Shown piece after piece: positions 24,076 through 52,430 of a DNA stretch of 64,000 bases (its first letter is position 1; every line of letters starts with the position of its first letter). Under the pieces are notes generated by a model. That model worked only from the letters and a program-made list of their open reading frames with translations. It made no database searches and was not told where the DNA came from. A program made the position numbers and the translations under genes. Origin of the DNA: Somniosus microcephalus (Eukaryota); assembly GCA_052327205.1 (NCBI GenBank), contig CM126230.1, positions 42,160,001-42,224,000 on the forward strand, written 5' to 3'.

Positions 24076-24468
24076 GAATCCTAGGTTATGTTCTAAATGT
24101 ATGCCAAGAATGCCACAGTTCTGATTTCAGGCACAGATTTTTAAGAAGCTTGGACCTGCTGTCTCTTTTTTTTAACTTTAGGTTGTGAGGGATCATTCGT
24201 TCTTTCGAATTGATTTTAAATCAATGTTGATTTTGTCCTTGGTTTCTTTACAAGAGTATATTAGATTGTCTGCGTACAGTTCAACAAATCTATACCTAAA
24301 GTACCAACCGTACATTTTAATGTCATAAATATATCTTGCGTGAAAACGACCGGTGCGGTCAGAAAAGAGGTGCATATACTGGAAATCCCAAGAGTACAGT
24401 AACTCTCATTAGGAGATGAATCGGTTGAAGTGAGATTGCAATGGATGGGACAGGCATGTAATAATGTA

Positions 24469-25040
24469 CACACAGACAGACAACACAGACCAGACAACAC
24501 AGACAGACAACACAGACAGACAGCACAAACAGACAGCACAGACAGACAACACAGACAGACAACACAAATAGACAACACAGACCAGACAACACAAATAGAC
24601 AACACAGACCAGACAACAGACGGACAACACAGACAGACAGCACAAACAGACAACACAGACCAGACAACACAGACCAGACAACACAGGCCAGGCAACACAG
24701 ACAGACAACACAAATAGACAACACAGACAGACAGCACAGACAACACAGACCAGACAACACAGACCAGGCAACACAGACCAGACAACACAGACAGACAGCA
24801 CAGACAACACAGACCAGACAACACAGACCAGACAACACAGACAGACAGCACAGACAACATAGACCAGACAACACAGACCAGACAACACAGACCAGACAAC
24901 ACAGACCAGACAACACAAATAGACAACACAGACCAGACAACACAGACCAGACAACACAGACCAGACAACACAGACAGACAACACAGACAGACAACACAGA
25001 CCAGACAACACAGACCAGACAACACAGACAGACAACACAG
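24469..25040. repeat. Low-complexity satellite (ACACAGACCAGACA / ACACAGACAGACA units), resuming at 25947-26030
   Basis: Directly visible 13-14 bp tandem units. Confidence 0.95.
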
Positions 25041-25946
25041 AGCAAGTTATTATCTTAATGGCAAGAAACTGGAAAGTACTGAAGTACAAAGGGATCTGGG
25101 GGTCCTGGTGCACGAAACTCAAAAGGTTAGTATGCAGGTGCAGCAAGTGATTAAGAAGGCCAATGGAATGTTGGCTTTCATTGCTAGGGGGATAGAATAT
25201 AAAAATAGGGAGGTATCGCTTCAGTTGTACAAGGTATTGGTGAGACCGCACCTAGAATACTGTGTACAGTTTTGGTGTCCATACTTAAGAAAGGACATAC
25301 TTGCTCTCGAGTCAGTACAAAGAAGGTTCACTCGGTTAATCCCGGGGATGAGGGGATGGACATGTGAGGAGAGGTTGAGTAGATTGGGACTCTACTCATT
25401 GGAGTTCAGAAGAATGAGAGGCGATCTTATTGAAACATATAAGATTGTGAAGGGGTTGGATCGGGTGGATGCGGGGAAGATGTTCCCGATGATGGGTGAA
25501 ACTAGAACTAGGGGGCATAGTCTTAGAATAAGGGGCTGCTCTTTCAAAACTGAGATGAGGAGGAACTACTTCACTCAGAGGGTGGTAGGTCCATGGAATA
25601 TGCTGCCCCAAAAAGCTGTAGAAGCTACATCATTACATAAATTTAAAACAGAAATAGACAGTTTCCTAGAAGTAAAGGAAATTAAGGGTTATGGGGAGCA
25701 GGCAGGAATTTGGACATGAGTCTAGGTTCGGATCGGTCATGGCCCTGTGGGTAGCGGAGCGGGCCCAGGGGCCGTGTAGCCTGATCCTGCTCCTATTTCG
25801 TGTGTCTAATTCTGTTAGATTCAGGAGATGGTTCTGTGATAGTGGATTGGCGGTTAGGATCAGATCAGCCATGATCTTATTGAATGGCGGAGCAGGCTCG
25901 AGGGGCCGATTGGCCTACTCCTGCTCCTATTTCTTATGTTCTTATG
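25041..25946 (+). mobile_element. Young CR1 3' fragment inserted in a satellite
   Basis: Uninterrupted 203-aa C-terminal ORF2 (25108-25719), TTATGTTC tail, AACACAG on both sides (likely TSD). Confidence 0.9.
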
Positions 25947-27167
25947 TAACACAGACAGACAACACAGACCAGACAATACAGACAGACAACACAGACCAGA
26001 CAACACAAACACAGACAGACAGCACAGACACGATGGAACATGGCAACAGCTAAAATCTATCTCTGGATCAACTCAGTTCCCCAGTTATACCGACCGGATA
26101 CTGAACAACGGATATTTTTTACAAGATGCAACCTTTAACAGAAATTGGGGACCAGCTAGAGTTCAAAGTTTGATCAAAAGCACGCTATGACTTTTTCAGC
26201 GAGAATGCTAAAGGATCAGTATTTCAAATCGGTTAATTCAATCAAACCCTGCTCGCATTTTTGTGAATTGTTTCAACGGGAACAATTTATTATTTTTGGG
26301 TTGGAAACTGGCCTTTCAGTGGAACACAAACATTTGTTAGTGAGTCTAACAATCCTGCTGATGACACTGGCGGGGTTTGATAAACTGCAACCTGTTGACA
26401 CAATCTCCAGCCACTCTGAACCATCTCACAACGCCACAATGTCAGAAGAGCAGTCAGTCATGGTCCCTGGGAGCAACTGTTCAAACCGGTCTAAGCACCA
26501 AGAGCAGCCTCACAGGCCTCACAAAATAAAATATTTATTGTTGCATGGCTTGGGATTTGTCTGCAGTCAGAAATCCAACTCTGGCCACACACTCACCTAT
26601 GGGTTTGAGATTCGCTTTTCCATTTTGTCCACCATAATCCGGCCTCTTCCCGTGCAGGGTGACCAGACCCAGAGCTCATTCTCCGCCGATCGGCAGCGCT
26701 TGCTCTGAACTCAAGGATTACAAATTTGTTGTCGACTTTATTCCGCCGCTGTTCTCCCATTGCTTCTTGCAGACAGTTCAATGCACAAAGCAGTCTGGCG
26801 ATGGCCGGGTGCCTTGCATTGAATGCAGGCAGATATATATATATATATATATTTATATGTGTGTGTGTGGTACCTTTATCTGGTGACGCTGGCTTTACTC
26901 CATAAATCAGGACGTCTTTTGTAATCCTTCTCTCTGACTGTAAATCGAATGCAGTCTGCAAACACTGAGCTGCTGACTGAGGAGAGACATGGTGCCGGCC
27001 GGAGTGGAGGGTGTGTGGTGGTCTGGGACAGAGCCGGGGGGCTGGCCGCAGTTACTGGACCAGGTTTCTCAGCCCCACCGGCGTGTTTCAGGCCAAAACA
27101 ATCCGCATAAAAATTGGATGTGCTGCGCTCCGGTTGTTCCTAGTTATGTTGGGATACAATGGGCTCA

Positions 27168-32620: not shown

Positions 32621-33945
32621 CCCCGCCCCCCCCCCCCAATTGCATCCCAGTCGTAATTAATTGGAAGTATTATGGGATGTTTTTGAGATGTGATCAGGCG
32701 GAATATAAAGGCAGGTCGGTATTTTTCTGCAGCACCTGAATTTTTCCGATTGGAGTGAAGCTTTGTCAACATTCAGAGGTACCCCTTCATCTATATATTG
32801 CTTCATCTTATCTGCGAGAGGCCGTTCTATCTGGGCCCAGCAGCAGTCGACAGTAACTATTCTTGCACATTGTGTTCACCAGATTACCGCGAGACCATCA
32901 GAAAATAATATTGTTGATAATCCGGGAAAATTTACATTTGATCTATAGCAGTTCAAGTGACGAAATATGTATATGAATTATAAAACAACTAAAACGGATA
33001 CTAGTTTTTCATACATAATTTCAACAAAAATATTGAAAATTCATTTTTTAGATACATATCTAAATTATTACAGTAAAAATTACAGTTTAGAAAAATAATG
33101 GTTCTGTCAAATTCAACACAAATTTACTGCCACATTTGGATAGTCAGCTTCCGTTTTCAGTATTTTTTTCAGTGTTATTTTTCGGTTTCGATATGTTTTA
33201 ACGGTGCCAAGGTTTTCTCATTTCAGTGACACTCCGAAATGCTAAAAGTACTTGTTATAAGTAGATTATATAGTTTCATATTTTGGCATTTTCTCCTTGC
33301 AATCCTTTAAATTGTACCATTAAACACGCAATATTTAAACGAGATATCTAGCCCTTATCTTAATTCCCGGCACGCCTCTCTGAACTTATCTAACTTGCTG
33401 CAGACAGGCAGAAATCGGTGCAAAAATATAATATTGCCTGGTACACATTTTGGAACTGCGTGAGTGTGTAAAATTTGCAATGGACACATGCTGGCGCAGG
33501 TTTGTTCTCAATACCTGGACATTAAATTTTTTGCCAGTCTTTCACTTCGATGCAGACAGCTTGACGAGAGTTTCAGAGAAATAAATCCTCCCTCGTTTCA
33601 ATTTCAGCAAATTGCAAAAGCTAAAATAATTTCAGAACAGATCTCTATAACATTTTGAGGGCTGCTTCTCAAGACTGTGGCAGGAATGAGATTGAGATGC
33701 ATGGTTTTGTGTCGGGGTCGCATCTTTTGGAACCCTCTTTGTAAATGTGGTCGTTACATTAACCATGGTATTACCCAGAGCGACCGGGGAAATTCTCACC
33801 TTTTAGTAACTAAGATTAGAGTGAATGGTTAATTGCCCCCCCCCAAAATGCATTTGGACCTTTAGTAAAAAGCCAGATCCACGCTATATCAGCCTGCTAC
33901 GGGCTCCCCAGAATAAGATAGCGTACACATAGATTGTCGAATCTG

Positions 33946-33951
33946 TTTATT
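33946..33951 (-). terminator. pitx3: Candidate pitx3 polyadenylation signal AATAAA (3' UTR about 0.8 kb)
   Basis: TTTATT on + strand, with GT/T-rich sequence just downstream on the minus strand. Confidence 0.55.
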
Positions 33952-34760
33952 AAGCATCAGCCAGAGTGCAAATCAAACTTTCTTGTCTGTAAACTTTGGC
34001 CTTTTTGGGAGAAGGTTGCGCACATTCGATTAGAATGAGAAATGCCGTAGCTGCCAGCTTCAAGCGAGGAGTCAAACCGTTACAAATATTAAGAACTCGA
34101 CAAATTAAGAAGAAAAAACCTCACGGAAAATGAGTGTGTTAGTCTGCAGCCAATCGAAGATCGCGACTGGGGATGCACTGAAAGGGATGTGGTCTTTATG
34201 GTCAATGCCTGATTGAAAAATTCGTAAAAGGTCCCGTTTTTAAAAGGAAAAATGACACCGTTTGCTGGTGCAGGGAGGCTGTGCAAGGGTATACAACAGT
34301 GAATAAATCACAGCAGCCCAGTCTTTACATTCCTAATCTATTGACAAAGCCGCAACTCAAGGTATGCTGTTAGAGGACATGCTGTCTTTTTTTAACCTTT
34401 AAAAACACTACTTTATAGATAATTATTTCACATACAAAAGGAAAACAAAAAAAAAGTTCATTATATACATCATATCCCGCATTACAACCTAGAAGCCGGA
34501 GTTGTAATGGCCATGCATATTTTGAATTGTATATCAACTGGATTAGCAAATATTTATCTGCAATAGTTATGTATATAACACTCTTTTTATGAAAGCTTTC
34601 TAAACCTGTCCACATGAAAGGGGAATTTGTCTTCTCAATTGAACAGGTATCATTTTTAGCCAGCGCTGTCAAGGTGGGAGCTGGTGCTGTACATTGATGG
34701 GTCAAAGGTCATATATTTAGGGTTAAACCGATTTTTTTTAAAAAAAAATAATCACTAGGC

Positions 34761-35324
<564 letters not shown>

Positions 35325-35579
35325 CTAAACCAGAAAAGATAGATTTCATTAACTTTGGCTGGCGCGCGTGTGTATGGAACAAGTAATGGCCAAATAGATT
35401 CCTTTCCATTCAGATGTCGTTTTGCCCCCAAATACAAATGTTATTCCCATTGCATCTCACGGGTCTGGTCTGTACACATGGGAGAACATTTTGGTAATGA
35501 TTAGGCTTTATTGATAATGAACAGAAAAGCGACTATTTGATAGCAAAGTTGAATGTAAAAAAAAAAATCAGAATGTATA

Positions 35580-35830
35580 ATTCATAGGATGATACAGCAC
35601 AGGAGGAGGCCATTCGGCCCGCCGTGCCTGTGCCGGCTCTTTGAAAGAACTCTCCAATTAGTCCCACTCAACCTGTTCTTTCCCCACAGCCCTGCAATTC
35701 TTTTCCTTTTCAAGTATTTATCCAATTCCCTTTTTTTTTTACTATTGAATCTGCTTTCAGGCAGTGCATTCCAGATCACGACAACTCGCTGCGTTAAATA
35801 AACGTTCTCTTCATCTGCCCTCTGGTTCTA
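35580..35830 (-). mobile_element. CR1 3' fragment in the last pitx3 intron
   Basis: IWNALPE motif and tail. Confidence 0.75.
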
Positions 35831-36694
35831 ATTCTACCCAGATCGTGCTTGAAACTTGGTTGTCAACATAACATGGTGATCGAATGATGCATAATAATTA
35901 ATTCCGGGTCCCTGTAACTGCCAGCGTGGAAGATATATGAATTTCGCTACAAGATGAAAACAAATCTGAATCGTTCCTGGGAGTCTGTAAGGTCCAATTC
36001 TATACTGACCGTAATTACTTGAGAGAACACAACAACATATTGGCAGCTTCAGGCTAAACATAATATTGTTCTCTCACTTAAAATGCAAGGTTAATAACAG
36101 ATGCCCACCGTTAACCACCTACAGCATGTCGAAATGAGCGCTACAACTCACAGTTTTGGAATTGGCCTGTAAATGATCCAGCAAAACCAAATTCTTGGAG
36201 ATCCTACCAGATTCTTTCGCTGTTAACTTTTACTCGACATTTCTTGCATTGCTTTAGCACTTTGGAATCCTCTTGACTAGATTGCCAATAACTGTCATGC
36301 TTAGATCTGGATTTGTCTCGAGTGATCATAAAACTCAAACGCCTGGCTTGTAATATTATACATCAGTCATTTTAATTACTCATACTCCAACAAGTTCTAA
36401 ATCAAAAACATGACATGGAATGTATTTTAGGGATCATGAAGTGTGTAGAAGTTACTGTCTTCAGTGTCTAGGGTAATAAAACAACGAATAACTGGGGGGA
36501 GAGGGAGGTGGGCAATAGGCTTTGATCAGAATCCTGCACCTCACTGAATGCTGGATCGGCAATCTGTCCACAGCAATGAAAAGGAGTGGGAAATGTGTTA
36601 TTCTTTAGACTGTTTGACATTGGGTAAGTCTTTGGGATCAGGTATGCCCTTTACCTTTTAGTATTTCTCTGGGTTATCTGTGAAGCCATCATTC

Positions 36695-37050
36695 TACAAC
36701 AACAACTTGCATTTATACAGCGCCTTTAATGTAGTAAGACGCCCCAAGGCGTTTCACAGGAGCGATTATCAAACACAATTCGACACCGAGTCACAGAAGG
36801 AGATATTAGGACAGGTGACCAAAGAGGTAGGTTTTAAGGAGCGTCTCAAAGGAGGAGAGGTAGAGAGGCGGGGAGAGAGGTAGAGACTCGAGACCCCGAG
36901 AGAGGCGGAGAGGTTTAGGGAGGGAATTCCAGAGCTTGGGGCCCAGGCAACTGAAGGCACGGCCACCAATGGTGGAGCGATTAAAATCGGGGGATGTTCA
37001 AGAGGCCAGAATTAGAGGAGCGCAGAGATCTCGGAGGTTTGTGGGGCTTA
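36695..37050 (-). mobile_element. L2-like LINE 3' fragment in the last pitx3 intron
   Basis: Same family as 14242-14785. Confidence 0.8.
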
Positions 37051-37142
37051 AAGTGGCCAACTTGGCATTTGGGCAATGACAATACTTTGAATGGGACCTA
37101 TTATTAACTTTCATTCTCAGTCTAAAAATGGGACTTCACTCA

Positions 37143-37382
<240 letters not shown>

Positions 37383-38123
37383 CTAGATTAATCCTGCTCT
37401 CCTTTCCCTAAACACTTCCATAAATCCAGCTGTTTATTTTGTGGATTGTAGATAAATGCGGTCACAGGAAACATATATGTGCAGTAAATAACTGTAGTTG
37501 TCAGGGTTCTGAGTGATTGCAGCAAAGTTCTGTCACCAATACACTTATCGAGTTATGAACAAAACTAGTGTGGTTCAAATTGTTCTCTCCCCCTTTGATG
37601 GACCTATGGGATTTACAAAACTCTGTTTTTCTGAAGGTTTCGCAGAGCCGAGAAATTGATTTCGAATGTGTCGGGGCGGGTTAAAATTGCAGCTAGTCAC
37701 AGGGCAAAACAGGCGCGTTCAAGCGACGGGCGGAAGGGACGCCAGACAGAGGGGCAGTTTAGAAGCAAAATGACTTTCTGTTAGTGCAAATATTATCTTT
37801 GAACGGTCTTTGCTTTAACCTTTTCCCGATGCATTTATAACCAGATCAGGATTGCTGTGTCATTTTAAAAGATGGTATTAATTTTACATGGCAATGGCGT
37901 ATTCTGGGATGCCAAATTAAAGTAGATTATCAAAGGGCAAACGATGCTAATTACCCCTCACCTCTCACCCCCTCCCCCACATCCCCCCTCCCTCTGCACA
38001 ACATTTAATCACAGGGACAGGGAGAGGTAAATACAACCTTACTTTATAAACAATAATAATCCAGCGTTCCTCAACCGATTTGGATCATTGATTTTTCTCT
38101 CCAGGAATCGGTTTCATTCCTAC

Positions 38124-38217
38124 CTGCACATTGGCTGTTCGGGGTGTCGACCACATTTCTCAGTTGATCGGCGTATTGTCCTTTCGGGAATCGGAGCGTT
38201 TGAACATTGGCTGACAT
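38124..38217 (-). CDS. Putative alternative first coding exon of pitx3 (MSANVQTLRFPKGQYADQLRNVVDTPNSQCA, phase 1), Pitx2c-like
   Basis: ATG with G at -3, 31 open codons and a CAG|GTAGGA donor in the phase required by the homeobox exon 763 bp downstream. Prediction only. Confidence 0.4.
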
Positions 38218-41200
38218 TGCAAATCAAAACACCAGGCGAATAAATCTCAAATCTAGTTTTATCTCCTGCCTAAACAGTCGGGCGTTCAGATTGCCTTAAA
38301 ACGCAATCGTGTGCTCTGTCGCTTCCCAAGCCAGTAAGCCTCTCCCAATCCCGGGACCCCACAAAGGGCATTGATTTATCTGCGAGTAAATCCCCAGCTC
38401 AGACACACTGACAAGGGCAGGTATGAGGACCCCCTGGTCGCCGCCTTCCCTTTAACTCTTGTTTGTTAAAGGCTTAGCTTTTGGGGGCAGTTATAAATGT
38501 GTACTGGCTGAACCTTCGCACCTCTCCTTATTGTGAGGCCAAGAACCTCAAGGCGGGTCCGCCGGTGATGCAAGCTGTAAACTGACACAGAATGGCTGTC
38601 AGAAACCCTAAGCATCCGCGGAGAGCCAAAGAGAGAAAACATACACCCACGTCAGACAAAAGGGCAGACAATTTAGAATAAGCACAGCACTCTTGGTTTT
38701 TTTTTTGAATTTGGGAGGGATTAACTGCAGATAGAAGAGACGAAACAAAATATGCCCAACCCCGATTAGATTTCAAGAACTATTTGTAAGTTCAGTTTTC
38801 AAAGGCACAGACAAATCTTATAACACTGCGCTTTAGATTTTCTGTGCAACCGACACCTGGTGTATCTCTCTTTTGATTTGTTGAATTACCTGAACACAAT
38901 GAAACTTATTGTGTCTCTCCAGTTTATATACCTTTATCGCAATATTATGGGATGCAATACTTTTGCAATTGCAAGGTTTGATCATATTTCTTCCATTACT
39001 CGTTGCTACTAATTCATGAAATCGACCTGAAATGAACAACTGGAAACTGCAGCTTTAAGTGAACGGACGGATAGAATATTAATTTATATAAAACGAGATT
39101 AAATTCATAAATAGCTCTCTTCACTGGAGCTCAAGGACTAGCGTCAAACGATAACAACGAGGTCACAGCGGTTTATATATGGATGAGTCAAATGTGTGAA
39201 ATGTTAGAGAATTAACATTAAAACCAAGAAAAAAACAGCCCTGAGGTGAAACCTGTGTTAAGAGTTTATTGTGGAAGTGGAGGGTGAAATGCTTTTCCAT
39301 TTTGAGCCTTTTTCTCTGCATCACAAGTTCCTGCAGTTCAAAGCAACTCATTGCATGTGAAGCACTACATAAATGTAAGCCGTTTACTTTTTAATTATAA
39401 ATCTTACGATCAACCACCCCACGTGTATTTAAATTCGATAAGTAATAATGTGGGCAAAAGTTACATTATACGTCAAGAGAACATTAGGAAAACATGCCCC
39501 TTCATTACAATAACACCTCGGATGCAGTCAGAAACTCATGTTCGCCTCGTTCACTGTCTTGAGTTTGGGGCGCTTTCGGTGTCGGCCATAGATTGAGAAA
39601 ATAGCTGGTGAAAAATAAGCTTTTGTCACCAGTCGGGAATGTCAACAAGCCGAGATAACTGGCCAAGTTTCGCAGAGATTTCACCCGCTGTCGGTCAGTT
39701 GAGCATTTTCTAGTTAAAATGTAAGCCGAGTTCGGCAAGTGGGTTTTATGGCATCAGAATTTCACGCCGTGTCAGCAAAAAGCTGCTAAATTTCCCGGTG
39801 CATATTAATTTAACAATAATTTATGATGTGTGAGTCCTCTTGGCGCCGCGTCAAACACTTACAGGTGAGAATGCGCATTTATTCTACCGTTTCCTTTAAA
39901 AAATATATAGATTTCAGTAACTCTTAACAGGACGCTACACTCCTCGGGCGGGTACCTATCAGTGTCTGCCCTCTGTGTTATTACAATACAATCATTTCAA
40001 ATATCACTTTGCCTTTATTCCCAATTCTAACATTAACGGACTGTTCCCTAGGGTGAAAATATTGAATCCACATCTTGAATTATCCGAGTATCGTCGATGG
40101 AAATTCAGTAAAAGTTTTTTTATTTAGCAGTGAAAGAGTTAATATTCATGGTGTATAGTCATAATATTTGATGTACGTGTGGCTAGGGGAAAACTTCTTA
40201 AATATTCCTAAATGCCAGTTTCCCCAGATAGGGACTATTTACAAAAGCAGTCACAATATCTTCCTGTTCAATATTTGCTACTGTCTCTCTGATTGTAAAT
40301 TCACTCCTGGGACGGCCCCTGGCATTTGTTCATAAACTGAAGCTTATTTTAACTCGATTTAAAGTATCCACATCACAATCTCCCCAGGTGATTGCACACT
40401 AGCTTTTAAATTGCGCGAGAAGCGTGACACGGAGGGTTAAAATGCGCACAACACTGATAACAGACTGAGTTGGATCTGCAACTGATCGATGAAAGAATCA
40501 ACTCCTTAAATTGTTTGGAAAATGGACACAATCTGGGCTCTGTGTTGTTGCTGACAGACTGTGCAGTTTCTGTATCCGCACCAGAGAGAGGGCATCCCTC
40601 TCTTTCGTGCTTAAAATAAAAACCTGATTTAATAATTAGGAGGTAAAAAAATCATCATACCACCTATGGCCGTTTAGGATAACATTTATAATCTGTGGGT
40701 AATAGACATTATTACAGAGAAGCTGAAGTATTAAAGGAAGGGTTAAAGGCTTATCGCTGTGTACTGTTGGTGTTATCCGCACAGGTTTATTTCAGGATGA
40801 GGCAGAGTCCGAGTAGCCAGCAGTCTTTAATCAGCTTTCATTACAAATATAAGCATTGAGTTTAAAAACGGGAAGTTTAAATGCCTCAGGGATGTTCATT
40901 GCAAAAACTGGTTTTATTGGAAAATAACTCCCCGCAGAGAGAATGCTTTACCGAGCTGGATTTCATAATCATAGTATACGCATGCATTTTAATCCCGTTA
41001 ATCCAACCGCATCGTAAAAGAGAGAAGGGATTAATATTTATTTTATTACGGTCTGAAAGCATCTATCTGAATTGTATTTGAAGAAGTGCCCCAACATTTG
41101 AGTCCAGGATCCACTCTCTCTCTTTTCGTGTTGTGTACAGATTTGTCAAAATGATTATAGGAAGACAGCTCGTTCATATTCAGTAGGGTTTAAAATTGAG

Positions 41201-44200
41201 AGGCACGCAGCCTATTAATTAAAGTGAAGATGGTGTTTCTCCTGCAGTGACTGGAGTCTTGCCTGGTGCCGGTACATTCAAAACAAATTAAGGTAAACAT
41301 TTATTTATTTATTTCCAGCCGCTGGGAGGTTTAATTTATTTGTTGCAGTTTTTTTTCAGACATAGCATTTTGTTCACACCATGCTTTCTTTTTAAAACAA
41401 AGCGAGCAATTCGCTTTACAATTACTCGTGCGCTTTCTGCCCCAATATATTCAATGTTATTCTTTGCCAACGGCAACCGAATAAAGGAAATAAAAACGCC
41501 ATCGCTAAACAATAAATATGGCGAGATACAAGTGCATTTAAAGAGGCTATTTAGGATCAAATTGTCCAGAACTCAAGAGGTGGCTTGTAAACAATTGTTG
41601 GGTTAAAAGTGTTTATTGACAAGCCTGAGGGTATGATACACCAAGATATTACATATATATTTACTCGGGGTATTCCAAAGTCTCCTTCCTTGTACCCAAC
41701 CATAATATCAAACAATGTCATCACAGTGCCCGAGTCATTTGCAAGCACACAAAAAAATCTTCAACAGAATTCCACCCCAAAAATCACCAATGTATTTTTT
41801 TTGTACCGTGCTTAGACTGATCTGCAAATATCGGAATCAGGTCAATATTTAAATCGCAGTCACGAATATAAACAATCAGCTTTGAGCTAGACTTCAGTAC
41901 AAGTCACAAGGGCCGATTACTGACTGAAATATAATGTTGATTTCAAGTGGAAAACGCGACAATCCCTCTCTGCTTGTAGTTTTTCCCCTCTGTCGATTAT
42001 TTTTTTTACTACAACAGCCTTTCTCGCTTCCTTTCCGTCTCCCTTTTCTTTTTTTTGCGCCCAGGCCTCCACCAAATAAAGATGTGACTGATCTGTCAGT
42101 GAAAGATCAGCTTTTGTAAAGTAAATATTTTGATGGTTTTTTAAACAGAGAGCCCCATTGCGTGCCAGATCGCGGCGCCGCCAATCCCTTTTTAATCAAC
42201 TGGCTTCAATTCAATTAAAAATCCCACTTCTAAAGCCGGCAACTGCAGGATCTGCCCCTGTCTCCTCACCTCACGTCCCGGCGCTGGGAAGAAAATGTCC
42301 AAAAATGTGGTGGTCTCTGGGTTTTAGAACCGGAAGTGCCCTGCTCTGATTAGATCTTTGTTGAAATGTATGCTTTATCTTGCTCACGAATTCTACTAAG
42401 CCTCATTAAAACTCGGGAGACCATTTCCAAAGAAAACGACGCCTAATTCGACCCTGCAAGCAGTCTACAGTATATACACTGATAATATAAAAGAGAATTT
42501 TATTTTTTTTAAATGGTGCAAACTTTGACCCTTATTTAGTGGGACACCAGCTGGTAGTGTTTGAAATGTGTTACAAGTTTGAAGGTTTTGGGTGGCGGGT
42601 CAGCCTTTATTTCACAGCCACATCTCTCCAAAAATGAACATGTCTCTTTATTTCGGGGCAGAGAAGAAAACATATTTTCCTGCGCTGTTTCTTAAGTTTG
42701 TGTTGAAATCAGCAGCAGGGGAGACCTGATAAATGACTGGATGCCCTCGACTGTCTTGAATCGGAATGTGGTTTGTATTTTGGTTAGAGGTTGAAATTAT
42801 TTCAAAATATTTTAGGACTTCCATGCAAATACGGATGTTCTTTCTGGAAATGTTTACACTTTGACATTGTTCTTCCTTTTAATTAGCACTGCCCATGCAA
42901 TTAATTAAAATCTCCACTGTACAGATATGTTCATTAAGGTTCCTGAGATGGAACAAAATCGCTGTGAATCGTCGGCATTAACGCTGTTTAGAACGAAAAT
43001 ATTATTTCAGCTAAACTATCTGCATGTGAGCAGAATAAGGTTGGATATGCGGTAGGCGGGAGCGGTTTTACCCCACAGAGATCCGTAAACAGACTTATAA
43101 TAATGTGTGGTGCACGATACAGCCACAATTAATTTGATGGTCCTGGGAATTCTTACGGGGAATTCGTATGGCTTACGCCGAGATTTATTCCACTTTGTAT
43201 ATGATGTCTTTATTCCAAATCCAGTCCTGGTGGACAATTGTTTATTTTATTTGCCAGTTTGCAATACAACTAGATCAGATTCCTACTTGCAACCTGAACT
43301 ATTAAAGATTTAATGGATTTTGTTATATGAAACCAGTGGTGTGTGCGCCGCAATTTATACTTCCTAACTTAATCCAACATATTTACAAATGGCTTTATTA
43401 CAGTGTGAAGTTAATTGATATTTTATATATGTAATGGTAATCGCCGGTGCAATTTAGATTTTTGTAAATGATTCACAGGTTATTAAATGTCCCTACTTAT
43501 ATCACCAGTGTACATCATATAATACAGTAGGGATGTTTAGCATCCATATTTGTGATTATGTTATCACAAGAATATATACTATTTTATCAACTGACTTTTT
43601 AACATTTCAACAAACACACTTTTATCTTCCTGCAACCTGTAGCAAACCCAAAACAACCCACTTCCACGACAGAAAGGCCAAACTGTTTGCAGGGATGCCC
43701 CCCCTCCCCATTCAGACAGAACATGCCCACTCGAGAGGGACCAGGCGAGACATTGACAGCACCTTGAATCAAACTACTGTCACTGAAGGAATACAGCAAG
43801 GAATCGACAATGTGTATCTACAGCAGTGCTTCCGATATCCTGCTTTATCATTCCCCAATAAATAGGATTCACCAACTGCTGAACAGGTTTAAAGCCCCGT
43901 TTCAGTGCAGGTGCCCCGGCAGTAAGGGCAACAATCGCCATGTCCTTGTGCCATAGCGCGGAAATAATTAAACACGTGTTTTGTCCCTTTTCTTAATCTA
44001 GAGTTACAAGTGTGACCGCGGGCTGAGGCTGACCCAGACAGATGTTGTGACGACGCGCAATGAAACCCAGTCATGTCCCAGTGTTAAATGAATATGGTGA
44101 TAAGGCGCCGGGTCATTCTGCCATCTCACCCAGCAGACTGCCTCCTCTCTCTTCACTTCAATCTGTCTTTCTTTCTTTCATATTGTTGTAATCCGATCGA

Positions 44201-44377
44201 CTGGAGTGGATGCTCACTTGCAGCATTTTGAGAACTCCGTGCAGATTATCGACACCTATTTTTTTTTTACTTTGCAAACATGAGCAGGGGCAGTGAAAGA
44301 AATTACAGGTACAGTCGACACTATTGAGACAATAAACCTGCGTTTGCCGTTTCCCTGAGGCCCTTGTATTAAACTCA

Positions 44378-44397
44378 GCGGCCACTAGAGGTCGCCA
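44378..44397 (+). promoter_or_regulatory. Candidate CTCF site in pitx3 intron
   Basis: GCGGCCACTAGAGGTCGCCA, one mismatch from the CCACTAGAGGGCGC core. Confidence 0.5.
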
Positions 44398-44632
44398 GCT
44401 TTAAGAGTGATTCATTTTCAATCATTGATTCTTGGGCCCATTTTCTTCCCAATTGTCATCCTCCTTGCTTTTGTTCTTTGTCCCTTTTTAGGGGAAACGA
44501 GTCAGCTTTCAGCCTCTTTACAGTCTACCTCCCTATTTAATTGCTTGCTCTCCTTGCTGCCCCCCCCCCGCCCCCCGCCTCTGATGAGCTTGCAGTCATT
44601 CACAAGTGCAGTCAGAAATGCAACCAACTCAC

Positions 44633-44759
44633 CGCTGCTGTCCTGCTGTGTCTTACAGATGGGTTCCCTCTGTGGGGTCCCGGAGTCTGAGAGGGTCAGC
44701 GGGCTGTGATCAGGAGCGTCCGAGTCGGTCAGAACCCCGCTCGACAGGTTGTATTCCAT
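44633..44759 (-). CDS. pitx3: pitx3 first canonical coding exon (MEYNLSSGVLTDSDAPDHSPLTLSDSGTPQREPICKTQQDSS, phase-1 donor)
   Basis: Translation resembles the Pitx3 N-terminus (SP.L.LSD.GTP motif). GTGAGT donor at 44632-44627. Polypyrimidine tract plus CAG acceptors at 44775-44774 and 44770-44769. Confidence 0.92.
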
Positions 44760-46167
44760 CCGATGGGCCTGTGCTGCCGGAAAAAAAAACAATTCACATC
44801 CAAGTCAATACACATCAGCAAACCCAGTCTGAACAAAGACTTCTCCTTCAGCAATTCTCTCTGAGCGGGCACCTTGCTTTTGCAGGGACAGTTACCAGTC
44901 TTGATTTCCCAGGATGTGACTATGCTGTGAATATCTTCACCTGAGAATTAAACCTATTCCAAAAACTGTAACTCAGGATTACCAGTTACCAACACACGTT
45001 CTGAAGCTAGCTTCCAGCTCTGGTTGGCGATTACATCTGAAGCTTGGAAAAAAGGACGGTCACAACAATACTGATGAGGATATTCCTATTAATAGCTAAC
45101 TAAATCCCAACTGCGTTTTGTAAAATTCCTTCTCACTGTTTCATTCTTCTTTATCTTTAGAATTACGGTAATTCACAGCGGAAGCACTGACAGGGAGAAG
45201 ACAAGTTCAAATGGGACAAGACAAGTTCACACAAGTCGCGAAGGCGGCCATTCATCCATTTCCCTCCTCCTCAATATCAACCGATTTTAACATTTTTTAA
45301 AACACCACACATGGTAAAATGTACATTATGGTATTTTGTAGGAATATGGTATTCTTCATTCCATGAAGTTAATATTATAATCTATCCATCCTAGTGACCC
45401 GTGTCTTGCCTTTGATCCCAAATATCAGGCGACAGCGCACACATTTTCTGAAATAGGGTCAGTTACAATGAGTGCATCACTGGACCATGCACTGGACCAT
45501 GCACTGGACCCCACACTCTTGGCAAGAAAACCATTGAACTCCAATCTGAGCAAATTCCCAGCTTTTGCTTATTGTAACGGTGGCGTTTATTTCAAGCACA
45601 TTAATCGATATGTAAGTTTGTAATTAAACGCTGCACTCGAGCTGAGAAGTGGTAGCTGTATAATTACTGTAAGTACCTTTCTCTGCTTTACTGACTGTCC
45701 AAAAAATGCAGTCTTGTTTCTTTTGTTGTGGTGAAACTTGTTTCCAAGAGCACGCGCCTATAGTTTGCTTACACAACAATAGTCACTGTGCTCCATAAAG
45801 GCATTTATTGTCTGTAAAGCGCGTTGTGGTGTTGCGGAGAGAAGTAATAAAGTGCGGTATAAATATAATCTTCTTTTGACCAAAGATTCAGACAGCAACG
45901 TCCATCAGGAGACCATCTCCAGCCAGTCTAAGAATTGAGATGTCGCATATGACAGCCTTTGTCACAATACAATTCTGTTCATTGAACTTTTAGTTTAGTT
46001 TGGTGCATTACAGTTGGTTCAAAACACGTGACGATACAATGGCAATTTAACCAAATGGGAGCTTTGTGCTGTTCCATGCTATTTTTATCCCAAAGACAAG
46101 TGCTTTCAATTATTTTCTTAGGATCGAAATTATGCTTTATCTAAATTCTGGCCCATTGAACGATATA

Positions 46168-46270
46168 AAAAGACTTGCATTTCTATAGCGCCTTTCACAA
46201 CCTCAGGACGTCCCAAAGCGCTTCACAGCCAATGAAGTATTTTTGAAATGTGGTCACTGTTGCAATGTAG
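46168..46270 (-). mobile_element. SacSINE1/Deu-type SINE 3' fragment
   Basis: AAGACTTGCATTTCTATAGCGCCTTTCACAACCTCAGGACGTCCCAAAGCG. Confidence 0.75.
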
Positions 46271-48526
46271 GGGGATATACAGGATTCATGGGATTGCTGC
46301 CTTGTACCTATCTTTGGTGACGTGGCTATTCTGCTAGGGCGTTTCCTGGGATAGTTATTTTGATTTTTTTCCCTTGTTAAACCTTTAGCTATTTATCACG
46401 CGAGTTTGTCTGTGATTTGGAAATTCGTGCAATGATGTATTCGCACTTCGTGTCAAAACTTTAATGTCATTTGAAATAAATCCAATCAAAAGACCATTGT
46501 ACCGAAAGTCTAGGCCACCATATTTGATAGGGTCTTGGCTTCGGGTGAAACAATGAGGTGGAGGGTTCCGAACATGTGTTGTCCATAACCTAGGCTTAGG
46601 ACATGTTTAAAATGTCACTTGCAAAATAAAAGCACGCACGTTAAATAGTATATCCTGCAATTCATGAAGTCAGATACCTCCATCTGTGACCAGAGACATA
46701 ACTATGGTTTTACACAATCTGATAACACCTTCCACCGGGGGAGAGAGAGAGAAAAAAACATAAACGCGCCGTGAATTAATTTCTTGGATTAAGATTTGAT
46801 TAAGATGTGTGTCAATTTGCCGTCCCATAACTTATTAAGATGCGGCGGCTCCCGGGCTGTCCCGATATATACATATATACAGATATAGATATAGAGGGAG
46901 CAGATGGAATTTTGACGGAATGTTTGTAGATGATAATTTCAGCGTTTCTGCCCCCATTTGCATCTGATTGCATCTGTCAGGCGCCTTTCCGATCTCCAGG
47001 GCTGCCTGTCTCGGGGTGGGAGGTGGGGGGGGGGGGGGGGTCATGTAGATCAGAAACAGCTTCATTTAATTCCAAGTCACATTTATTATCCAATCTGTTT
47101 GGACGCATTAATATTCAATATTGAGCCGAGACGGAGCTTATTCGTCTTCCGAGCCGTAGCGGAGTTAATTCAAAGCACTACAAAAAAAATAATAAACCCA
47201 GCGCCTGTCGCCCTGCCGTGTGTTGGACAATAGTGGGCTCTTTTCAGGGTCCAAACGGGAACTCGAACAGGCAACAATTTTAGGAGTTATGCTGCTACAG
47301 GAAGAACACTTTGGGTGGTTAAAGTCAATTTATTAACTGATTAATCGGTTAGTCGATACGTCTCCTATCAATAAAACACAAGGAGATAAGGATGTGTGAT
47401 GGACATTATGTGTGACCTTCCCGGTGCATGGTTCGCCCTGTTCTTATTTTCTAAATGGCGTTATATTTTCTTCCGGTGAAGTGTCCCAGAGAGGGTTTAC
47501 TGAGCAGAGACTGGGATTTAGTCGCACTGTACAGCGTGTGCTAGATGCACACACACACAAACACACATCAGTAACAAGCTTGAGTTGCCAATGCGAGCAA
47601 TATCTGCGCTTTATTCGGATTTAAGGAAATTCCGAGCCCAAGATGATTGCGTTCGGAATGTTATCAGTAAATCTAATTTATCTTCACTTGGTGCAATTGC
47701 TATCTGCGGCCAGACACCTTCAGAAGGGACCCTGTCATTGTGATCTGAATATAAGGCCTTTGAAAAGGAAAGGGCGCCCATGTCTATTTCATAATTAAAA
47801 TCAAGATCAGAACTTGGCAGAAACCCCTCTCTAATTTTTCTTATTAGTTTAACAGCTCGGGTCTTGTAGTGTTCAGTGCCATTTTCGTAGCATTTACAGA
47901 ACTAATAACAGAGGAGGTCAATCGGCCTGTCTTGCCTGTGCCGATTCTCTTTTTAAATGTATCCATTTCCAAAAGTTTATTCCGTGTAGGGAAAAGAATA
48001 AATAAAAATCGACTGCAGCCTGTTTTGAGGGAGAACTGTTAAAACCCTCGTCCGTTTAATGTTCAATCTTTTGGTTTAAAATACTCAAAGACTAACTACT
48101 CGTGACATTTATTCGTCTTCAAAATAAGAGACAGTTCGTGTGAAATTACTCTCAGAAAGAATGCACACGCTGCCCTTGTATTCCTTTCGGATGGTCTCTA
48201 TAATCAGTCCGAACGCTGCATTTCGTTTAGTGTCAGTAGCACAACCGCGCCGGGTGAACACACAAGGTGGCGAATTTGTTAGAATTTTGGAAACATGCGC
48301 CTTATGTTGTTCAGTCGTGTTCGTTTGTGCGGACTTATACCTCGAGCTGCAAATGTTAGTCTTAACGGCTCTTTCTGGAAAAATAAAGCGACGCCCGCCG
48401 TAGATTGTGTTACTGACTCTGAGCTCCTTTCCCTGTGAGCATATCTAAATTTGCCAGTCGCCTCAATCTGTTTCGAATCTGATACCGTGCGTATGCAGAG
48501 CAAGCAAACCACGCCGAGACACTTAC

Positions 48527-48623
48527 CACTCATGCTTGTAAAAAGCAGCGCCACTATTATCCGAAACACGGGTGATATTTTCTCGTACAACTCGCAGTTA
48601 GCGAGCGCGCACGTTGATTCCAC
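48527..48623 (-). other. Candidate upstream pitx3 exon (3' part), open in frame with the canonical CDS
   Basis: GTAAGT donor at 48526-48521. ATG AGT G| (A at -3) joins the 44773 acceptor in frame to give MSAQAHR-MEYNL. 5' boundary unknown. Confidence 0.35.
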
Positions 48624-51600
48624 TGTTTATTTAAAATCCAGATTGATAGAGGCGTTTACCCCCCAACCCCCCCTTCTTACTGAACTCCAAACGCCCCGTG
48701 TTGTCTCTGGTACTTTCTCCAACTTGAGTGTTGTCCCTTGCAGTAACTGTGCTGAAAGTTTGCGGGTCTTATACCGAGTCTCCCGTGGCTAGGACGCACC
48801 TGCTGGCCATCAATATCCCATCCGAACCCGCTCGGCACAATCGTGAAAGATTCCTTTTGTTCACTGCCCAGCCACACACGGGACAGCAGAATATATTATA
48901 TTTATATATATATGTATCTGTATTGTTTGAGGAAGCAGTTATTCTGTCCCGGGCCTACTTGGATTGGATCTGAAAGTAAGTGTCAGAATCCAAACCGATT
49001 TCAAATGATTCGCCCTTACCCTGGTGCGTTGAATAACGCCCAGAGCACTCGGTAATAAACCCGAACAACTGCTGCATTCTTTAGAGACAAGCCCATTAAT
49101 TGTTTTGAGCAAGACAAAAAATATATATTTTACCACTTCTGAAAAAGGCTATTTTTAAAACCATTTTAGGCTGGATTGGTATTTTTCAATCTCTTTACAT
49201 TTAAATAATAGTTTAAAAGTAGGCTAAGGTCTTTTCAATGTCTTTTCCTTCGGCCCGGATTTTTAAAAAAAATTTCAGCCAGCTAATATCAGCATAGTAA
49301 TAATCTGAACATCATTCAAATCCTTGTCAAATCGTGGGTCTGTCGGCTCTTGCTGCGTTAGATGGAAGAATGTATTGTTGGATTTGCAGCTGCCCGCTCA
49401 GCGAAAGGGTGACATAATTTCAAGAGAATGTTACTTTTGCACAAACAAATCGGTCCTATTCCTGCCCACTAAAAAATGAAGCCTTACTTGCGACTTCACA
49501 TAAATGGTTGGGTTTTACTATCACAAATATATTGCAATCTTTAACTCACATCGCCTTTTTGACATGTATTTATGATGTTTGCTCATTCATTTGGATCATC
49601 TCTCATTTATAACCAAACATCATTGGGACTCTGCTTTTTGCTGATAGATTGTTTTATTTCAGTCAGATTCTGGGTCTTCCAACAGCTGCCAAGTTACTTC
49701 CCCGCCGCCTTCACTGCCCTCTTCCTTTCAAAGGTAGCTGAAAGTGACAATTGCCGTTTCAAACCTGTTTCTGGTTATGTCGTCAAATAATTGTACGGAG
49801 TTCGTAAAATCGTTTCCTTCCTGCTGTCACCGTATTTTTTTTTTAAAAAAGGTATTGGACTTGACACGCGGAACCGATCGGCCCAGCCATGACTGTATTC
49901 GCTGGTAAAAGCTAGGAATTTAGCATTGCTCGAATAAAAGTGAAGCAATCCGTTTGGAAATATTTTCAATTTTTACACACTTGCCAAGATTCGCCTGCAC
50001 TCTAAATGGAGAAGCCGCTGTAAACCCTGGTTCATTAATCATTCTCAAAATATCCCCCTGTTAGCACGCCTTCGATAGCGAGCCCTGGACATAATGGAAT
50101 AGGTCATTGAGGCTTGAAAGGGAGTAAATCACAGACAATCTCGCGCTGTTGGATCACTGCTAATAGGGTCAGACTTCAAAAAAGTTCGGAAACAACCCCC
50201 CAAAACATTCAAACATTCTCAAACGATGCATTAGGTCCAAGGCGTCGCCTAAAATACATTTAATGCACAGTACAGCTGAACTACATATCATAGATTCAAT
50301 TTCTGGGGGATTTCCTGTTTAAAGGAACAACGCATTCAATTATATATATTATATATATACATATACACGTATATTAGTTGTTGAGGATATACAACACCCG
50401 ACATGACATCCCCGACGGCAAAAGGCATGCGGCAACTCAAAAAGACCCCCACAGAATCTCAAACATTTATCAATGGGAACAAGTCGATACCGACAATCAC
50501 TTACAGCAAATCCCTCTTTAAATGAATAAATCCGGGGATAGGATAAGTTTACCGAAGATTAGTGGTTCCTGTAGCTGTCAGAATTAAGAGTTCCTTCGAA
50601 AACACGCGGCCAGGTCCTTGCACGGAGAGTCTCGGTGAAAGCCAAGCTGTGCGATCCCATTTGCTGGACAGATTGATTTTATGCCAATATCATCGGCTGC
50701 TACGAAACGACGCGACCACTGTGTGTGAGCAGAGAGGTCCAGCCCACTCGAGTACACGGCAAGTCCCAGCCCCTCGGATTCATTCAGAAGGGGTTAGGGA
50801 GACTGGATTGGATCTCTCCACACGCACGAATCCATTAAAGGCTGACAATTAACAAATTCACAGCAGGAAAAAAAAATGGCAATTTCTCTGGATTTCAGCA
50901 TCTACCTTTTCCGGATTATGAAGCGTTTGATGGGCATCTGTTCATTCATTTACCTGTCGGAAATTCACGTGTCATTACAGGGGGTGATTTTTCGTAAGCT
51001 GACTATTTAAGATCTAAATTTGATATTGTCAATTTCCTAAATTCAGGCGCAGGTGACGCACGAGGTGTCTACCTCAGCTGAAACAGGTCCCCAGGGAGGT
51101 CCACGTTAAATATTACATGCTGCACATTCCCAATAAAGGGACGAGACACTGGGGCAAAGTCTGCCGTTTTAAGGAAATATTATTTTAAAACGCTCTTTGC
51201 TTACTTGGTTTAAATTCATTGGAATCAAGTCAGATTTTGACCCTGAAACAAAATCTGTGAAGTCACAACACTCACAATGTTCCCCCCAGATTTATTCGAA
51301 TTCCTATCCCGACATTTTCAAGTCGGAAATTGTCCTGGGAATAGTCTGCGCTGCCACGGAAGGTCTTGTCATAATAAATGCATGGCTGGAGACACACGTC
51401 TGTCGTTATGAGTGTCACACCCTATTGCACATGGCAGGATTTGTTGTTTTGTGAGCGAGCTGAGCACTGCTTGCAATTCTCAGATCGTGCAACTTTCTTC
51501 ATTTGACCATTATGCGTTTTACTGCTTCACTCATTGCTTGAACATCCACCAGCGCACAACAATAAAATGGCATGAGCAACCTTTCACGGGGCGGGCGCCA

Positions 51601-51849
51601 CGTCATTTCTTTCAGTGCCAACAGACATTGCACAGAGTTCAGGGTTCACTGCAGAGTTCACAGCCAGGGCACAGGATCAAAAATAAACAACGCATGCTGA
51701 TGGATTTTATCGCAAAGGAAGAGGTGTGTTGCTGCAGGGTGCAGAGGCTGTGTGTGTGTGTGTGTGTAAGGGCCAGGCTGGGGTTGCAGTGAGTTGGGAG
51801 GGAGCCAGTGTCCCAGGACCAGGGCTTGTCCCAGCATTGAGCATCCTGG

Positions 51850-52430
51850 AGGACTGGCCCGCTATCCCAGCAACCTCTGCGGCGCTGTCGGCTCCCACTA
51901 ACTTGATGGCCGCGAGCCCGCCTCCTCCGCGCCCATTGGTCGCTCTCCCGACGCCGGCGGGCCAGACGGTGTTCCGATTGGCTGCGCCGCCCCGTCAATC
52001 ATCCCGGCGGCCGCCAGCAGGTTAGAGAGGCGGGGGTGGAGGGGGTTTGCGCCTGCGCATCGCGTCCGTGGGAGCCGGGCCGGTTCTGAGCAGGTTTGGA
52101 GCTGGGAGCCGGGACTGGAATGTAGAGCGGGGACTCGGGCCTGCCATTGCTACTGCTACTGCCGCCGCCTTCTCCTTCTCCGGTGCCGGTGCCGGGGATG
52201 TCCGAGGCGATTGGCGGGGGGACGCTCGGTGCCTGCCAGCTGCCGTGGGAGCCCGGCCGCCGCCATCTTGGATGTGTTGGAAGCCGCCGCGGGGGGTGAG
52301 TGCGCCCGGTCCCGGCCCAGTGTGCGCGAGTGTCCGGGCCCGTGTCCGAGAGTGCCCGGCCCAGTGTGCGCGAGTGTCCGGGCCCGGCCCAGTGTGCGAG
52401 AGTGTCCGTCTGTCAGAGGCCGAGGCCGGG
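51850..52430 (+). promoter_or_regulatory. CpG-island housekeeping promoter of gbf1, divergent from pitx3
   Basis: High CpG density. Inverted CCAAT boxes at 51935-51939 and 51977-51981, GC box GAGGCGGGG near 52027, NRF1 palindrome TGCGCCTGCGCA at 52048-52059, downstream YY1 motif. Confidence 0.8.
52075..52295 (+). other. gbf1: gbf1 non-coding exon 1 (start approximate)
   Basis: GC/CpG-rich leader with a YY1 motif GCCGCCATCTTG (about 52258-52270), ending at a GG|GTGAGT donor at 52296. Confidence 0.65.

Follow-up and report, generated by a model that had tools for sequence, protein, structure and literature searches.

A candidate c-type first coding exon in the long intron of pitx3 in the shark Somniosus microcephalus

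The long intron of a shark pitx3 gene raises the question of whether Pitx3, in the manner of Pitx2, carries an alternative first coding exon just upstream of its homeobox exon and, if so, whether that exon is in use. Left-right asymmetry relies on the Pitx2c isoform, and a first-pass annotation had proposed a counterpart of its first coding exon in a stretch of Somniosus microcephalus DNA (64,000 nt of contig CM126230.1, assembly GCA_052327205.1, hereafter the window), on the minus strand at 38124-38217. Our best explanation, which we hold to be probable from the sequence comparisons that follow, is that this 94-nt stretch represents the Pitx3 copy of an ancestral chordate c first coding exon and that it is in use.

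The candidate exon and its host gene

Sequence comparison identifies the host gene as Pitx3. Its last coding exon (34761-35324, minus strand), which encodes the end of the homeodomain and the OAR domain and was assigned by similarity and by the tree, finds its best match in Hemitrygon Pitx3 (93% identity), and in a tree of 24 last-exon sequences, with a midpoint root used for drawing only, the window gene has Hemitrygon Pitx3 as its sister (94/97), and the pair falls inside the Pitx3 group (89/84); neither of these forks is starred. It groups with Pitx3, and not with Pitx1, Pitx2 or the fourth paralog described below, which is the placement of an ortholog. The homeobox exon (37155-37360, minus strand) has a phase-1 acceptor, is 97% identical to that of Hemitrygon Pitx3 and is overlain by contigs of three RNA-like runs (X1, X2, and X3). 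The canonical first coding exon, in the a/b position (44633-44773, minus strand), has a phase-1 donor and is 93% identical to Hemitrygon Pitx3 isoform X1. Further upstream on the same strand, at 50505-50575, lies the 3' end of an exon that has two donors, after 50553 and after 50505, and is spliced to the canonical exon in relatives; it is here that the free ends of contigs from X1 and X3 match the window exactly. The two donors are 48 nt apart and are divided between the two relatives, X1 using 50553 and X3 using 50505; tandem acceptors (cag/cacag/, slashes marking the splice points here and below) are also found at the canonical coding exon (44768-44773), of which the relatives' contigs pick the upstream one, 44773.

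Within the intron of 7,272 nt that separates the usual coding exon from the homeobox exon, and 6.4 kb downstream of the former, a minus-strand gcaATG at 38217 opens the peptide MSANVQTLRFPKGQYADQLRNVVDTPNSQCA, read from the window sequence. The start codon stands in the context gcaATGt, with a purine (G) at -3 and T at +4, and the frame runs for 31 codons plus a G (94 nt, 38217-38124) to a phase-1 donor, CAG/GTAGGA, that matches 7 of 9 consensus positions. An intron of 763 nt (37361-38123, GT...AG, 3' end tttcgcag) separates this exon from the homeobox exon, which opens at 37360 with AT, the exon's G and this AT making an Asp codon. Joined by coordinates, the candidate exon, the homeobox exon (37360-37155) and the last exon (35324-34761) give 287 open codons through the homeodomain and the OAR domain. 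The first-pass annotation had the start codon, the length, the donor at 38124, the size of the intron and the in-frame join to the homeobox exon exactly right. The stretch thus combines its own start codon, an open frame and a phase-1 donor with the position of a c exon, between the coding exon in the a/b position (ending at 44633) and the homeobox exon (37360). Two codons upstream of the ATG lies an in-frame TGA (38224-38226, minus strand), so that the candidate Met is the sole possible start of its frame; the approximately 34 additional in-frame residues, read from an upstream Met, that characterize PITX2Cα are absent for the same reason, and a long extension of that type is ruled out.

This anatomy alone is not rare, since 414 stretches running from an ATG over 25 to 40 codons to a phase-1 GT occur in the window, and their number favors the reading that the candidate is a chance frame in intron DNA whose likeness to c-type N-termini is accidental. 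A donor matching at least 7 of 9 consensus positions is found in 15 of the 414; among the 16 that lie on the minus strand of the long pitx3 intron, the candidate's donor is the best, which argues against chance, as do the comparisons of the next section. A repeat origin was also checked, and no in-window repeat was found across 37056-46169, while the depth over 38156-38419 is single copy in the DNA run X5. Elsewhere in the window, 24400-26200 is occupied by a long low-complexity tandem repeat with a strong A skew and spurious long open reading frames.

The exon could also be real and yet be used differently. The Pitx2b exon is an in-frame internal cassette, and the candidate contains, in codons 2 and 3, a possible phase-1 acceptor (ATGTCAG/CC, 38210-38213, minus strand; without read support), splicing at 38211/38210, which would yield an 87-nt in-frame cassette placed between the canonical and the homeobox exons. 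Its tract at -5 to -20 holds 9 pyrimidines of 16, against 10 of 16 for the true homeobox acceptor, and no further AG occurs within about 35 nt upstream. We nevertheless regard a cassette as very unlikely: the peptide resembles c-type and not Pitx2b-type N-termini (0 versus 60 of 412 control stretches scoring as high, as described below), its Met lies at the distance from the junction that is seen in paralogs, and X1 and X3 contigs skip the candidate exon.

Likeness to the N-termini of Pitx paralogs

The paralogs differ in how they begin. Five chondrichthyan "Pitx3-like" proteins (P0103, P0105, P0107, P0109, and P0111) from 5 species make up a clade of their own (100/100), which falls on the Pitx3 side of the split from Pitx1 and Pitx2 (98/99 in the tree with the midpoint root for drawing only), and represent a fourth paralog, a gene distinct from pitx3, whose termini are known from database protein annotations. 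Their N-termini are long in Hypanus and Leucoraja and short in Cetorhinus (isoform X2), Stegostoma (isoform X3) and Heptranchias, which suggests that the fourth paralog keeps a two-promoter plan. The short forms, annotated "pituitary homeobox 3-like" (P0105, P0107, and P0109), have an N-terminus of 33 to 34 residues from Met that, judging from the protein sequences, would be encoded by an exon adjoining the homeobox exon; it ends in ...GTPNSESG at the junction, with TPNS common to the candidate in register, and gives the strongest match found. All five of the Pitx1 proteins examined (P0100, P0104, P0116, P0117, and P0120) have N-termini of c-type appearance, which gives the usual start of Pitx1 the look of a c-type exon. 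For PITX2, the short form PITX2Cβ is described as starting from Met35 (PMC2330153). Like the candidate, the PITX2C exon precedes the homeobox exon and offers an alternative start of the coding sequence, with a Met some 28 to 34 residues before the junction and an end rich in Asp and Thr; the phase-1 join given for Pitx2c in the first-pass annotation fits the junction in protein alignments. Unlike PITX2C, the candidate belongs to another ohnolog, Pitx3, shares low identity with it and has no upstream in-frame Met and hence no α form.

For a quantitative comparison, N-termini were taken from the 120 listed of 454 homologs, and 31 of them, cut at the homeobox-exon junction, were used for scoring, with the 412 other ATG...GT pseudo-exons of the window serving as controls. 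The scoring scheme, namely, anchoring at the junction, lengths of 25 to 40 or of 25, 31, and 37 codons and equal weighting of the paralog groups, was settled with the candidate already known, a circumstance that favors the chance reading. Against the short Pitx3-like termini the candidate scored 26.7 (z 5.1) and against 11 Pitx2c termini 11.5 (z 3.7), no control of 412 scoring as high in either comparison, while against 5 Pitx1 termini it scored 2.8, a value reached by 11 of 412 controls. As a scale, the short Pitx3-like termini themselves score z 4.7 to 4.9 against Pitx2c, and two shark or ray Pitx1 termini score z 7.2 to 7.5. The same anchored test gave no signal with a/b-type termini, controls scoring as high in 60 of 412 cases for Pitx2b, in 192 for canonical Pitx3 and in 27 for the long Pitx3-like forms. 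When no ATG was required, the candidate donor ranked first among 377 GT sites of the intron and first among 6,905 GT sites of the window, with 14.8 against 9.7 for the next, and a chance frame would thus have to come out on top on the right strand and in the right intron. The runner-up lies in the canonical pitx3 exon (44657-44750) and contains LSDSGTP, whose likeness to c-type termini may be due to chance or go back to an ancient similarity of the two kinds of exon.

The likeness is concentrated at the junction. Scored ungapped, the last 12 residues of the candidate were matched by none of 412 controls for either the Pitx3-like or the Pitx2c set, whereas its first 12 residues showed no similarity to the Pitx3-like termini (240 of 412 controls as high). 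The length from Met to junction is 31 residues in the candidate, 28 to 34 in 14 of 15 c-type paralog termini and 25 in one, and the candidate Met aligns with Met35 of PITX2Cβ; as far as the alignment goes, the candidate matches only the short PITX2Cβ part, which begins at that residue, and not the long PITX2Cα N-terminus. Methods that ignored the junction were less decisive. In an unanchored local comparison with the three Pitx3-like termini the candidate frame came first of 2,804 frames, though narrowly (32.7 versus 31.3), and it was unremarkable against Pitx2c, with 144 of 2,804 frames at or above it. Profile HMMs built from 15 c-type termini (candidate frame 1.2 bits) and from 3 Pitx3-like termini both left the candidate frame outside the top 8 of 2,804 frames, and these two misses also favor a chance frame.

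What exceeds chance in these comparisons is the junction-anchored likeness to c-type N-termini and not the anatomy. The best match, that to the short N-termini of the fourth paralog, is also the part least exposed to the bias of having had the candidate in view, because that paralog was not cited in the first-pass annotation. Since this match, the rank among GT sites, the position of the Met and the quality of the donor stand against it, we consider an accidental frame quite unlikely. The homology to the Pitx2c-type exon that had been proposed is borne out more strongly than originally argued, with no control as high for two paralog sets, and the end of the peptide, which had been read as the counterpart of TISDTSSPEAA, is where the signal indeed resides.

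Transcripts, upstream sequence and database searches

Four of 9 listed runs were compared with the locus, namely, X1, X2, and X3 (RNA-like) and X5 (DNA). The canonical joint from 44633 to 37360 is present in X1 contigs and its equivalent in X3, X1 and X3 representing two other species, and since their contigs cross by this joint the candidate exon is not constitutive in those two species. A joint from 38124 to 37360 was not seen in the contigs of the three RNA-like runs, in which only the canonical joint occurs and from which rare forms drop out in assembly. No contig of these runs lies over 38124-38217, which counts neither way. The first-pass proposal that sharks retain a "pitx3c" isoform therefore fares differently in its two parts, the homology to a c-type exon being upheld by the anchored scores and the expected junction being absent from the three RNA-like runs. 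The DNA run X5, the only one of the four to cover the candidate exon, is nearly identical to the window, with 12 differences in 7.9 kb, and none of the 10 that are listed falls in the candidate exon, a comparison that is uninformative on selection.

Upstream of the start codon, a TATA-like word, TTTATAA (38491-38497, minus strand, about 275 nt upstream of the ATG), marks by its motif a candidate core promoter, such words being common in the intron (8 TATAA matches in 38218-39200 on both strands). This word is spanned by an X1 contig of 161 nt (38386-38546, depth 2.4, 13 differences), which was set aside as promoter evidence, because other X1 intron contigs show similar identity. The putative 5' leader contains an out-of-frame upstream open reading frame of 33 codons (38270-38371, minus strand). 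The CpG profile of the locus was uninformative. Beyond the in-frame stop, the frame at 38229-38300 includes ...NLNARL..., which bears a loose resemblance, perhaps by chance, to the LNLERL motif that P0076 has in its long Pitx2c extension.

The left-right module of Pitx2c has clustered FoxH1 sites in its last intron and goes with left-sided, Nodal-dependent expression. In the last intron of the window gene (35325-37154), no match to the FoxH1 consensus was found; elsewhere the motif occurs as three single matches in 33500-52000 and six in the window, without a cluster. With the last intron devoid of the motif, the link to left-right asymmetry that the comparison with Pitx2c had implied is unsupported. 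Elsewhere in the long intron, the stretch 40689-41202 contains several bicoid/Pitx-type TAATC(C/T) words (at 40689, 40990, 40999, and 41033) and is 88 to 95% identical to X1 contigs at a depth of up to 11.5; it is possibly a conserved autoregulatory element or an unannotated exon.

Among database proteins, a comparable case within Pitx3 itself is isoform X2 of Anguilla rostrata Pitx3 (P0022), whose alternative N-terminus of 29 residues is joined at the same junction and Asp. Six of its first 13 residues are identical to the candidate in register, and its anchored score was reached by none of 412 controls (z 3.1), through residues 2 to 12 only; over the last 12 residues there is no similarity (78 of 412 controls as high), and the unanchored score is unremarkable (69 of 2,804 frames and 18 of 414 pseudo-exons). 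The eel match is thus weak, a lead to orthology and not proof of it. Used as a query, the eel N-terminus found 3 proteins among 4 candidates, these being the eel protein itself and two canonical Pitx3 proteins found via the shared linker. A search of 1.84 billion representatives with the 31-residue peptide gave a single match, P0123, which we rejected as chance since it is a five-fold tandem-repeat protein whose E-value results from summed repeats of 22.7 bits each. The ESM Atlas gave no usable match, the 48-residue read-through frame of the candidate had none among longer proteins (weak evidence), and no protein carrying the candidate N-terminus was found in the databases searched, a result that also speaks for the chance reading; the chondrichthyan Pitx3 cluster (P0002, 36 members) may already include the isoform as a predicted annotation.

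In the open literature, covered by titles and the beginnings of abstracts, we found no description of a c-type coding exon of Pitx3. The term "pitx3c" in the mouse dopamine-neuron literature was taken to denote Cre or cKO allele names and not an isoform. Mouse Pitx3 has a muscle-specific alternative first exon that is noncoding and precedes the usual coding exon; it resembles the candidate in implying an alternative promoter inside Pitx3 and differs from it in leaving the protein unchanged. Human and mouse Pitx3 are reviewed as having four exons and one 302-residue protein (PMC10218497), and an intragenic region near the 3' end of human PITX3 is reported to have promoter-type chromatin, without being linked to a coding exon (PMC5330441).

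The metagenome search yielded 80 loci; an upstream exon was looked for in the 3 that were best among the vertebrate-like ones, and none of the 3 held an intact counterpart of the c exon. This applies to 1,645 nt upstream of the homeobox exon in a bird-like (amniote-like) locus, L001, and to 1,383 nt in a teleost-like locus, L002, both of which stop short of the canonical exon. L001 contains, at 1256-1354 and 297 nt before its homeobox exon, an open stretch without a Met that ends in ...GDTREPEVG at a weak donor and scores 13.6 against Pitx2c termini; it is possibly a decayed remnant of a c exon, or else a product of chance. Such decay, if it is one, bears on another reading of the shark exon, namely, that it descends from the ancestral c exon and is now a silent or decaying remnant, neither transcribed nor spliced. 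Several observations would fit this reading: (i) the ungapped match to the closest paralog is confined to the last 12 residues; (ii) an extension of the PITX2Cα type is cut by the in-frame stop; (iii) the leader carries an out-of-frame upstream open reading frame; and (iv) the stretch in the bird-like pitx3 may illustrate how a decayed exon appears. Against it, the start codon with its purine at -3, the open frame and the 7/9 donor are all intact, and the short Pitx3-like proteins, which are annotated products, likewise lack the α extension. On balance we judge a silent remnant unlikely.

Origin, use and meaning of the exon

We return to the reading that the stretch is the Pitx3 copy of a c first coding exon and is still in use. 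Amphioxus and tunicate Pitx genes are described as producing both a/b and c isoforms from different starts (PMC8377849; PMC3267762). They share with the proposed shark gene a plan of two promoters, in which a/b is made from upstream exons while c starts separately in a first coding exon of its own, and they differ in being single-copy genes that predate the duplications, with left-sided Pitxc expression in amphioxus; the likeness drawn here is one of gene plan, as set out in PMC8377849. Because this plan is found in both groups, inheritance of a c exon by Pitx3 is plausible, and the plan itself predates the vertebrate genome duplications. A start codon, an open frame, a donor and a peptide likeness would be unlikely to survive together under neutrality since those duplications, which argues for purifying selection. 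Descent from a c exon older than the duplications, purifying selection and present use are all inferred as probable.

If the exon is used, transcription would begin at a promoter within the long intron, some hundreds of nucleotides before the ATG, and 38217-38124 would serve as the first coding exon and be spliced in frame to the homeobox exon. The predicted product is a 287-residue Pitx3 whose homeodomain and OAR domain are unchanged and whose short N-terminus is like that of PITX2Cβ. Pitx2 isoforms are reported to bind DNA and to activate in largely similar ways (PMC3267762), and by analogy to Pitx2 the difference at the protein level would be modest, the second promoter adding a separate expression domain. 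Given so small a change in the protein, the interest of the exon would be evolutionary and regulatory rather than mechanistic.

A wider reading, which we put forward tentatively and at somewhat less than an even chance, is that cartilaginous fish, and eels too, express Pitx3c, and that all four ohnologs inherited the a/b and c starts and then divided them, Pitx2 and the fourth paralog keeping both, Pitx1 keeping mainly the c start and most bony-vertebrate Pitx3 genes losing c. If this partition is true, the expression of shark Pitx3c would point to an ancestral domain that was later passed to Pitx1 or Pitx2. If shark Pitx3 does make the c form, (i) the loss of the Pitx3 c promoter would be dated to bony-vertebrate lineages; (ii) the candidate exon would supply an isoform-specific probe for which ancestral expression domain went with the c promoter; and (iii) the Pitx family would become a clear and testable case of gene duplicates dividing ancestral isoforms among themselves.
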